Shown here: positions 18,087 to 48,217 of the stretch, piece by piece
Layout of the letters: each line of letters starts with the position of its first letter
Position numbering within the stretch: the first letter of the stretch is position 1
Origin: Coraliomargarita sp.
GTDB lineage: Bacteria > Verrucomicrobiota > Verrucomicrobiia > Opitutales > Coraliomargaritaceae
Length of the DNA: 64,000 nucleotides
Direction of reading: 5' to 3'
Assembly (NCBI GenBank): GCA_965216325.1
Contig: OZ244160.1
Span: forward strand, 2,304,001 to 2,368,000
Notes under the pieces: generated by a model
Seen by the model: the letters and a program-made list of their open reading frames with translations, nothing else
Told to the model about the DNA's origin: nothing
Databases searched by the model: none
Translations under genes and position numbers: made by a program

Positions 18087-18168
18087 GTAGGGGCGTGCCT
18101 TGGGACGCCCGAAGTGTGGGATTTGTGGCTTTGGATCGGCGGGCGTCGTAAGCAACGCCCCTACGGTT
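18087..18168. repeat. GTAG-type inverted REP pair (GTAGGGGCG family)
   Basis: gtaggggcgtgccttgggacgccc ... gggcgtcgtaagcaacgcccctacggtt. Confidence 0.85.
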
Positions 18169-40298: not shown

Positions 40299-40307
40299 TT
40301 AAAGGCA

Positions 40308-40353
40308 TGAACATGAACATCGAACTTCGAACGTCCAACACTGAACGTCGAAT
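40308..40353. repeat. Heptamer-periodic array (TCGAACR family)
   Basis: gaacatc-gaacttc-gaacgtc-caacact-gaacgtc. Confidence 0.8.
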
Positions 40354-40380
40354 GAAGTGGATTTTAGTCTGCTTTTCGGT

Positions 40381-40412
40381 GTGGTGCGCCTCGAGACGCG
40401 GCTGCGCTACCT
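40381..40412 (-). repeat. GTAG-type REP (GTAGCGCAGCC family)
   Basis: 31/32 identical to the reverse complement of 48128-48159. Confidence 0.88.
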
Positions 40413-40476
40413 TGAACTAAACCGTAGATGACATGGGCGTTTATCAGGAGCACGGAAGTGCTATGATGATAAACTT

Positions 40477-41565
40477 ATGCAAAACCCCACATCATCTACA
40501 CGGACAACTAAGAACGCACTGGGCACAGTAATCAAGCTTGGCATTGACGTGCATGCGAGCACCTACGTGGTGGTCATGAAGATCGATAGCAGCGCCCCTT
40601 CACGCGCGAAGCGCATGAAGCCTGATATCTTCCTTCGATGGATTAAGCAGCTGAGCACTCAGTGCGAGCAGTTGCAAAGTTGCTACGAGGCCGGTCCTTT
40701 TGGTTACAGCCTGCACCGCAAGCTCAAGGCGATGGGCGTGAACAACCACGTAATCCGCCCGATCAACTGGGACACTCATGGTAAGAAGGTAAAGACCGAC
40801 GCGCGTGATGCGTTGCAAATGGTCTTGAGTCTGGACGGCTATCTGCGGGGCAATGACCGCAGCTTCAGTGTCGTGCGTGTGCCCAGCGAGCAAGAAGAGC
40901 GTCACCGCAGCCTAACCCGGCAGCGTGAAAGCTTCGTCAAAGAACGTGGCCGTGCGGCCAAGCGTGGTAAGAGTCTGGGACTGTATTACGATCAACCCTT
41001 ACCCAGCGGCTGGTGGAAGCCGCGCAAATGGATGCAGCTACTCGAACAGCTCGACGATTTTTTGATCAGCCTGCTGGAGCCACTGCGGTTAAACTGCCTG
41101 CACTTTAGCGAGCTAATCAGCAACATCGAAGAACGTATCGAAGCGCTCGAGCCGGAACGGGTGCTGCCTAAAGGCATGGGGGTGGTCCTCTATGAACAGA
41201 TCGAACGTGAGGTCTGCAACTGGAAGCGATTCAACAACCGCAAGGCGGTCAGTTCCTTTACCGGACTGTGCCCAAGCGAAGACACTAGTGCAAATCGGCG
41301 TTTCCAGGGCTCGATCAACAAACACGGCAGTCCCCGCCTGCGGCATATGCTACAAGAGTGCGCCTGGTTATTGATCCGGTGGAATCCCGGCTACAGTGGG
41401 GTGCGTAAATGGCAGGCCAAGCTCAGCGACGAGACCACCAGTAAGGCGACCCGCAAGAAAATTGCCGTGGCCATCGCCCGGCAGTTCGCCGTGGACTGGT
41501 GGCGCATACGCACTGGCCAATGCAGTCTCGAAGACTTCGGACTGATAAGCAGACAAAACCCATAA
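40477..41565 (+). CDS. IS110-family DEDD transposase/recombinase
   Basis: LGIDVH, YEAGPFG and KTDARDA (DEDD RuvC-like domain); GLCPSEDTS...GSINKHG serine domain. Confidence 0.95.
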   Translation: MQNPTSSTRTTKNALGTVIKLGIDVHASTYVVVMKIDSSAPSRAKRMKPDIFLRWIKQLSTQCEQLQSCYEAGPFGYSLHRKLKAMGVNNHVIRPINWDTHGKKVKTDARDALQMVLSLDGYLRGNDRSFSVVRVPSEQEERHRSLTRQRESFVKERGRAAKRGKSLGLYYDQPLPSGWWKPRKWMQLLEQLDDFLISLLEPLRLNCLHFSELISNIEERIEALEPERVLPKGMGVVLYEQIEREVCNWKRFNNRKAVSSFTGLCPSEDTSANRRFQGSINKHGSPRLRHMLQECAWLLIRWNPGYSGVRKWQAKLSDETTSKATRKKIAVAIARQFAVDWWRIRTGQCSLEDFGLISRQNP

Positions 41566-41627
41566 GTCCGAACCAACGCTAAAGGCCTTCACCCTCTGAT
41601 TTTAACGTTCTTTTGCAGTTTTCCTTT

Positions 41628-41784
41628 GTGCGGAGTGAGTCTGACCAAGCCCCTGTTGCCAACACAACGATTTTGTAGAATAGGCCACTTCGCCACCAAG
41701 CTTTTGAATGACCCAATGGATAGGTCATAGTGTGCTCTTCTGAGAAACACTCAGAAACACGGATAGCAGGTTATCCCGGATCAT
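41628..41784 (+). ncRNA. Putative bridge RNA/seekRNA (target-binding and donor-binding loops)
   Basis: Two stem/internal-loop/stem hairpins (41628-41696 and 41708-41784) whose loops match the target and donor junction sequences; folded by eye, transcript ends unknown. Confidence 0.75.
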
Positions 41785-41901
41785 CGAAACTCCGAGGCCA
41801 TGCGCGGTGGACGCTCAAAGACGATTGCAATCAAAACAAACCACTTATCTTATGTAAAAACACTCACACGCTTCTACACTCTTGACAGAAACGAACATAG
41901 C

Positions 41902-41991
41902 AGGGGCTTTGCTTGCGAAGCCCGCCGCGTCAGAGTGATCTTCTGAGACGCCGTTCTTTCCTGACTGAGGGCGTCGCATACAACGCCTCGA
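41902..41991. repeat. Remainder of the interrupted REP plus its inverted partner
   Basis: aggggctttgcttgcgaagccc ... gggcgtcgcatacaacgcctc; same family as 18087-18168. Confidence 0.8.
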
Positions 41992-42015
41992 CACTAGCTT
42001 TAAGGCCGTTCATTG

Positions 42016-42155
42016 AGTTCTCCTCCTTGTTTAAGGAGGAGTGCCCTGAGCTTGTCGAAGGGGGAGGTGGTTTGTTCCTGCGTTGGAAGTCTTCTCGGAG
42101 AGCAATCACCCCGACCGGGCAAGCCGGTCACCCCTCCTTGAAAAAGAGGGGAGCT
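42016..42155. repeat. Inverted pair of CTCCTCC..GAGGAG hairpin elements
   Basis: Arms resemble the second half of the 14747/52813 repeat. Confidence 0.7.
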
Positions 42156-48027: not shown

Positions 48028-48217
48028 GTAGGGCTCGTGCTTGCACGATGCCGCCAGTTCGTAGAGCGGCGCTTTGCGAGCAAAGGCCCTACGAAGAAGG
48101 CACGTTGCGTTTTGTGTGTTTCTTTTTAGGTAGCGCAGCCGCGTCTCGCGGCGCACCACGTTGTTGTGAGTTCAGCCATATGTCAGTTCTTGCGGAGCGA
48201 GGACGCTCCTGCGCTAC
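48028..48217. repeat. Two tandem GTAG-type inverted REP pairs
   Basis: 48028-48092 (gtagggctcgtgc...aaaggccctac) and 48130-48217 (gtagcgcagcc...cctgcgctac). Confidence 0.85.

Follow-up and report, generated by a model that had tools for sequence, protein, structure and literature searches.

In a 64,000-nt stretch of the genome of Coraliomargarita sp. (Verrucomicrobiota, Opitutales; contig OZ244160.1, positions 2,304,001 to 2,368,000; hereafter the window), we identified an insertion sequence (IS) of 1476 bp that occupies positions 40426–41901, the left copy of its AG core included. We interpret it, with a probability of roughly 0.9, as an IS1111-type element of the IS110 family that targets repetitive extragenic palindromes (REPs) under the guidance of a seekRNA or bridge RNA, whose loop carries short guides to both halves of the target. 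This interpretation draws on the copies of the element and their flanks, on a conserved RNA fold, on the complementarity between this RNA and the target, and on the covariation of guides and flanks in relatives. A sequence-only reading of the window had previously proposed that the element splits a host REP at its GTAG foot; the observation is real and the interpretation is supported. Removal of 40426–41901 restores the string written by that reader, which differs at three positions from the intact REP at 18137–18168 (minus strand aaccGTAGGGGCgTTGCTTaCGAcGCCCGCCG). What was missed at that stage was the cause of the site specificity, which the sequence points to as a guide RNA in the 3′ non-coding region (NCR) whose loops match the target.

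Copies of the element and their insertion sites

The left flank of the window copy terminates in ...aaccGT at 40425 and the IS starts with AGATGAC... at 40426, while its right end reads ...CATAGC up to 41901 and host DNA, from 41902 on, reads AGGGGCTTTGCTTGCGAAGCCCGCCG. The AG core is thus present at 40426–40427 and again at 41902–41903 (plus strand). It is bordered by a left target half AACCGT (40420–40425, plus strand), the final GT of which supplies the first two bases of the REP's GTAG head; the right target half, composed of AG and GGGCTTTGCTTGCGAAGCCCGC and forming the REP hairpin (41902–41925, plus strand), was delimited from the sequence and the flanks of the copies. A search of the genome, a single contig of 3,064,510 bases (3.06 Mb; all but 24,000 of them covered), identified nine full-length copies, eight of them identical and the ninth with one single-nucleotide polymorphism (SNP), and in two isolate sequencing runs the IS contig had ~9–10 times the depth of its flanks. 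All nine copies have the same orientation, carry AG at both junctions and, when read in IS orientation, are followed by AGGGGCTT. The left flank was YGT in eight copies and CGA in one (by four-nucleotide flank: TTGT and TCGT three times each, and CCGT, GCGT and ACGA once each). The prediction of the sequence-only reading that further copies would sit at GT/AG/GGGCTT (slashes mark the borders of the core) was borne out by eight of the nine, the last sitting at GA/AG/GGGCTT. A TAG core was considered and rejected, as the left AG is preceded by T in eight copies and by A in one, and the right AG by C.

The copy that carries the SNP (G000:C1:2070238-2071713; C>A at IS position 1333, which corresponds to position 41758 of the window) is also the only one with GA rather than GT at its left, and the substitution falls in the inner hairpin of the second module of the RNA described below. 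Outside this genome, one contig from a marine metagenome spans 40585–41916, differs at one position only (40692, C>T) and reaches 15 nt into the same REP flank, which places a near-identical IS at a AGGGGCTTTGCTTGC site in an environmental sample.

A predicted structured RNA with two guides in one loop

The 3′ NCR of the element is predicted to encode a structured RNA of ~150 nt (41632–41776). RNAalifold folded it into two modules of like design (each with an outer stem, a loop, an inner hairpin and a further loop), with 26 pairs in five helices, and we tested this fold on the aligned 3′ RNAs of 11 relatives. Over the whole fold 91.6% of cells were paired, versus 36–54% when the partners were slid; 17 of the 26 pairs had changed on both sides, and none of 500 shuffles reached the observed pairing. 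The first module, a candidate target-binding module at 41632–41696 (plus strand), consists of an outer stem, an internal loop and a small inner hairpin, and its 15 pairs in three helices were paired in 90.9–94.5% of cells, ten of the 15 having changed on both sides.

Two short stretches that match the target face each other across the internal loop of this module in the predicted fold. On the 5′ side lies AAGCCCCT (41647–41654, plus strand), the complement of AG plus GGGCTT and hence complementary to the top strand of the core and right target (AGGGGCTT); on the 3′ side lies TTGTAG (41673–41678, plus strand), which is the commonest left flank plus the core and, being identical to the left target and core, is complementary to the bottom strand. 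In only 10 of 20000 mononucleotide shuffles of the NCR did the 8-mer occur together with a [CT]GTAG no more than 45 nt downstream of it.

Based on these features, we propose that the element comprises a gene for a DEDD/serine recombinase followed by a structured 3′ RNA whose first internal loop would carry the two short guides. The pairings of these guides with the target would overlap at the AG core, the presumed site of strand exchange, and the site programmed in this way, (T)YGT/AG/GGGCTT, would correspond to the GTAG head together with the initial bases of the stem in one arm of a host REP doublet. The element would therefore land in this multicopy intergenic repeat, always in one orientation, and it has reached nine copies. 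The circular intermediate, the RNA–protein complex and the order of strand exchange that this mechanism presupposes are carried over from the published family.

Covariation of guides and flanks in relatives

Among relatives in the Opitutales, we found six different guides, each of which matches the right flank of its own element, including the core, over 7–10 nt. The guide AAGCCCCT with flank AGGGGCTT is shared by the window IS and the Thalassobacterium locus L011, whereas TGACCCCT is found with flank AGGGGTCA at five loci from Synoicihabitans and others (L012, L015, L023, L027 and L059). The remaining pairs are TGACTCCT with AGGAGTCA (L016), CTCCCCTCCT with AGGAGGGGAG (L056, a second element in the same genome as the window IS), GCGCCCT with AGGGCGC (L061) and ACCTCCT with AGGAGGT (L062). 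When the first three guide types were cross-tabulated, guides matched the flanks of foreign targets over at most 5 nt versus 8–10 nt for their own flanks. The left guide covaries as well, TTGTAG occurring with ..GT/AG and TTGAAG with the TTGA/AG flank of the Synoicihabitans elements.

A covariance model of the RNA found exactly ten copies in the genome of the window IS, i.e., those of the nine IS copies and of one paralogue, with no orphan RNA copies detected by this model. Among 150 further genomes from the order, eight had one copy each. Searches of 20 relatives, most of them draft genomes, did not recover the IS itself at E ≤ 1e-20. The near identity of the nine copies, together with the absence of the element from the kin searched, suggests a recent arrival followed by a burst.

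The paralogue is a second, single-copy IS110-family element (G000:C1 ~2769468-2771004; L056 1421-2957) with a transposase 46% identical to that of the window IS, and with the same ends and RNA design. It sits at ..GTCA/AG/GAGGGGAG, in the loop of another palindromic repeat, CCCCTCC-N7-GGAGGGG (21 matches), and 18 CAAGGAGGGGAG sites are unoccupied. A relative of this repeat family, cacccctccttgaaaaagaggggag, is present at 42128–42155 in the window, 230 nt to the right of the window IS.

The target is a REP family with its own RAYT gene

The pattern GTAGGGGCNTTGCTTGCGANGCCC, with up to two mismatches allowed, matched the genome 66 times versus none for a reversed control, and matched one genome of the same genus 20 times. 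GTA precedes 68 of 97 looser matches, and the repeat is accordingly one with a GTAG head, a short imperfect palindrome and many copies. Inverted pairs ~50 nt apart are common (e.g., 563086/563139 and 2126745/2126798), and six of the nine IS sites have an inverted partner REP 51–87 nt downstream; a seventh match to the partner expression, at offset 2, represents the target REP and was left out of this count. At the window site a degenerate inverted partner (41969–41992, minus strand), with four mismatches to the partner pattern, makes the site a REP doublet. In addition, a 191-residue open reading frame (ORF) at G000:C1:1680034-1680606 (L045 335-907) scored 89.5 bits against NF047646 (cut-off 80), matched PF01797, and has on either side an inverted doublet belonging to the REP family targeted by the IS. 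The target is therefore a genuine REP family with its own gene for a REP-associated tyrosine transposase (RAYT). GTAG-headed REPs have been published previously, including in a Verrucomicrobium (PMC3733652). PF01797 itself scored above its cut-off at 12 places in the genome on its own, together with four second halves of the same frames.

The sequence-only reading had inferred that a multicopy REP family serves as the landing site, so that other members would be targets. In line with this, 34 unoccupied GTAGGGGCTT sites remain as predicted targets, versus ~6.5 expected from composition. The word AGGGGCTT occurs 131 times in the genome; 34 of these occurrences belong to the unoccupied GTAGGGGCTT sites, and the other words without an IS are the nine inside the IS copies and unoccupied ones without a preceding GT.

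Since all nine sites are REPs or REP-derived hairpins, six of them in inverted doublets, and work on ISPpu9 suggests a preference for clusters beyond sequence (PMC12288879), one might suppose that the transposase reads the REP hairpin itself, through DNA structure or protein–DNA contacts, and that the matches to the RNA are incidental. We consider this very improbable. The hairpins that follow AGGGGCTT are not alike, as beyond the first 8 nt the right flanks vary in the manner of REP variants (TTTGCTTGCGAAGCCC, a compensated TTCGCTTGCGGAGCCC and two forms with long loop insertions), short stems being among them. Furthermore, each REP doublet consists of a GGGGCTT arm and a GGGGCGT arm; the IS is at the GGGGCTT arm in all nine cases, and the equally palindromic GGGGCGT arm is never occupied although GTAGGGGCG (114 occurrences) is commoner than GTAGGGGCT (49). 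This exclusive use of one arm is explained by the RNA guide, which matches that arm. Lastly, the changed loops of the relatives pair with changed flanks in which we saw no palindrome, as judged by eye only.

Another possibility is that the hairpin beginning with AGGGGCTT belongs to the IS as its right end rather than to host DNA, so that insertion would occur after YGT with little specificity on the right. The identity of the first 8 nt after ...CATAGC in all nine copies would fit this; however, the copies diverge past those 8 nt while the IS remains identical, which shows the hairpin to be host DNA and the insertion to lie at GT/AG/GGGCTT. The same sequence is also found preceded by GT and free of the IS at the 34 sites noted above, the 20 pattern matches in the same-genus genome come from a draft (80% complete) that has no IS at E ≤ 1e-20, and the RAYT gene is flanked by these very REPs; we thus give this possibility next to no credence. 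Equally hard to credit is that insertion is not site-specific and that copies survive only where they are harmless, e.g., in REP-rich spacers: REPs do lie between genes and the window copy lies between two ORFs, but all nine copies share the same nucleotide position and REP-relative orientation, and selection for harmlessness would not produce such single-base precision.

The two ORFs that border the window copy are, as we take from their translations, a glycerate-kinase-like ORF and an RNase E/G-like ORF. When the nine empty sites were rebuilt, four were without any spanning ORF of at least 80 residues and five were spanned by a mechanically called ORF.

The transposase and assignment to the IS110 family

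The only ORF noted within the IS is the transposase gene (40477–41565, plus strand; 362 residues), which was recognized by its matches to the PF01548, PF02371 and NF033542 profiles and by its invariant residues. PF01548 (29.2 bits, cut-off 29) and PF02371 (52.9 bits, cut-off 21.3) are both domains of IS110-family transposases, and the profile for IS110-family RNA-guided transposases, NF033542, was matched over positions 2–337 of its 343 at 137.8 bits (cut-off 140), a near miss that points to a divergent family member. Residues D24, E71, D108, D111 and S271 (DEDD plus serine) are invariant across six aligned relatives, S271 lying within the motif GLCPSEDTSA, and the motifs GIDV, EA and KTDxxDA line up with catalytic motifs in the ISCro4 transposase. 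A six-sequence profile reached the transposases of ISCro4 (E-value 3.4e-4) and IS621 (0.067), and phmmer with the single transposase found nothing among PDB sequences at E ≤ 0.01. A tblastn search of a plasmid collection matched 1001 records, all below 60% identity and at 26–32% among the matches listed; the one inspected, on a Klebsiella plasmid, was without annotation and so provided no named reference. Based on these results, the protein is a divergent member of the IS110 family. Its relatives came only from Verrucomicrobiota records, mostly Opitutales, apart from one labelled Sulfotelmatobacter and one "uncultured bacterium" record.

The arrangement of the element agrees with this assignment. 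In all nine copies the target and the orientation are fixed and only the short AG core is shared at the junctions, as is characteristic of the IS110 family. As in IS1111-type elements, for which Siddiquee et al. (2024, PMC11187229) describe a downstream NCR and subterminal repeats that leave extensions of 7 and 3 nt, the non-coding ends are unequal (51 nt upstream versus 336 nt downstream of the transposase gene) and an inverted repeat (IR) lies 7 nt from the left end (ATGGGCGTTT, 40433–40442, plus strand) and 3 nt from the right end (41889–41898, plus strand, compared as its reverse complement). The sequence-only reading had described this IR and linked its spacing to IS1111 elements; the repeat and the spacing agree with what we found, and the spacing with the published rule. 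The two repeats match at eight of ten positions, and the match extends to ~20 nt if a 2-nt gap is allowed. The order of the guides is likewise that of IS1111-type seekRNAs, which are 70–100 nt long and carry the complement of the top strand 5′ of the complement of the bottom strand, the two overlapping in the target (PMC11187229): here the top-strand complement at 41647–41654 precedes the bottom-strand complement at 41673–41678.

The second loop, a probable donor loop, and the possible circle junction

The second module of the RNA (41718–41776, plus strand) is probably a donor-binding module, the loop of which would hold the IS ends where they abut in a circular intermediate, through GTCAT and ATAGCAG. 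In its left loop, AGGTCATAG, GTCAT is complementary over 5 nt to the ATGAC that lies immediately inside the left end, and its right loop, GATAGCAGG, contains ATAGCAG, identical over 7 nt to the right end plus the core. The string GGATAGCAG is invariant in all 12 aligned RNAs, and the IS ends are nearly invariant too.

Circularization might, in addition, create a promoter at the junction. An outward-facing, −35-like TTGACA lies inside the right end (41882–41887, plus strand) and in a circle would precede, at a distance of 17 nt, the TGACAT of the left end, a weak −10; TTGAC is present at the same place in the right end of relatives.

Points that weigh against the interpretation

A number of observations count against a guide-directed IS1111-type element as proposed above. 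In the covariation data, the right flank at L057 has no match at all to its own guide, the left flank at L059 is unmatched, and five loci (L017, L018, L025, L026 and L064) have a match of only 5–6 nt or one without core pairing. The left guide matches over only 4–6 nt, and one copy has GA in place of GT. That 34 matching sites are still empty means that a sequence match alone does not predict which sites get used. For the donor loop the match is weak (a 5-nt complement without the core and a 7-nt identity), and a subclade (L017, L018, L030 and L056) has a different left donor loop with the same left end. The NF033542 score fell 2.2 bits short of its cut-off, and an Rfam scan of 40300–42100 at E ≤ 1 returned no matching family. 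Finally, neither a circle-junction joint nor an empty-site joint was listed among contigs from four sequencing runs, and the closest same-genus genome offered no orthologous empty site, a neighbouring gene there being 77% identical with different genes downstream.

Comparison with known elements

That IS110-family elements target REPs, as the sequence-only reading had noted, is in print (PMC1525189, PMC11208160); REPs were surveyed as IS targets as early as 2006 (Tobes and Pareja, PMC1525189). The element is thus a divergent member, from the Verrucomicrobiota, of a kind of REP-targeting IS that has already been published. With ISEc11, ISKpn4, ISPst6 and ISPa11 (PMC11187229) it shares the 3′ NCR, the 7- and 3-nt extensions and the guide order, and with IS1111-type elements generally a pair of short matches to the target whose overlap falls at the insertion point, the re-aiming between relatives (natural cases being ISEc11 and ISXne4) and, in the case of ISPa11, a REP target. 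However, the transposase is longer (362 versus 330–350 residues), its motif ends in SA rather than SG, TG or TA (GLCPSEDTSA versus the published GL-P----S(t)G; relatives L017 and L018 have ..SSG), the IR match of 8/10 is weaker than the published 11–13 near-perfect positions, protein identity to anything in the plasmid collection reaches ~31% at most, and the host belongs to the Verrucomicrobiota (Opitutales).

IS621 of E. coli (Durrant et al. 2024, PMC11208160) likewise has a DEDD-plus-serine recombinase, a 2-nt core, a two-loop RNA that carries a guide to each strand, and a REP target. Its 11-bp target in REPs, ATCAGGC-CT-AC, reads GT-AG-GCCTGAT on the other strand, and so, as we read it, GT/AG of the GTAG head was already a known crossover point. 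IS621 differs from the window IS in that its guide order is reversed, in its opposite orientation relative to the REP hairpin, and in the weakness of the protein profile match given above. ISPpu9 and ISPpu10 of Pseudomonas putida are present in several copies, all within REPs and mostly in doublets (PMC12288879, PMC1525189), and share with the window IS the IS110-family assignment, the REP sites and an AG dinucleotide at both boundaries (PMC12288879). While the window IS is inserted in the GTAG head, ISPpu9 is reported to insert between the 9th and 10th nucleotide of its REP (PMC12288879), and while ISPpu9 has the extra small RNAs Asr9 and Ssr9 and mobile sub-modules, the Coraliomargarita genome has no orphan RNA copies.

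Based on the guide pairs of the relatives, we speculate, with considerable doubt, that a handful of base changes in the guide loop (TGACCCCT to AAGCCCCT and TTGAAG to TTGTAG) re-aimed the element, within one Opitutales clade of IS1111-like elements, from AGGGGTCA, a site that by eye only lies in no palindrome, to the GTAG head of RAYT-mobilised REP doublets, which would have allowed the burst to nine copies. As insertion splits the GTAG head from its hairpin, such ISs would be parasites of the REPIN–RAYT system and not merely users of a safe harbour, and as the unrelated IS621 crosses at the same GT/AG in E. coli REPs, the RAYT head may perhaps be a recurrent, convergent landing point.

The finding leaves knowledge of the mechanism unchanged. 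It provides a clean natural example of what appears to be an RNA-guided IS outside the Proteobacteria, with a guide that can be read directly from the sequence; one genome offers nine insertions and 34 empty matching sites, relatives add six guide–target pairs, and the same genome holds a further member of the family that is directed to another palindromic repeat. For annotation, the ends of the IS, its predicted RNA and its target are now defined, and the set is comparative material for bridge or seek RNAs of the IS1111 type.

Neighbouring repeats

A REP of a second GTAG-headed family, the minus strand of which reads GTAGCGCAGCC..., lies at 40381–40410, 13 nt to the left of the insertion. The sequence-only reading had pointed to 48066–48159 as an uninterrupted analogue of the empty site, which holds in part: the second REP type is indeed present there at 48130–48159, as is a GTAG-headed REP on the minus strand at ~48068–48092; however, the latter is a member of the GGGCCTTT subfamily, and the spacer there measures 37 nt versus 13 nt at the IS site. 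The second family (GTAGCGCAGCCGCGTCTCG.GGCGCACCAC) is repeated in this and in same-genus genomes, and its members adjoin REPs of the first family at both 40381–40410 and 48130–48159. Further to the left, directly 3′ of the glycerate-kinase-like ORF, a stretch of ~40 nt (~40313–40355) has many copies in the genome, and at least five further genomes from the family and order carry it at 81–93% identity.

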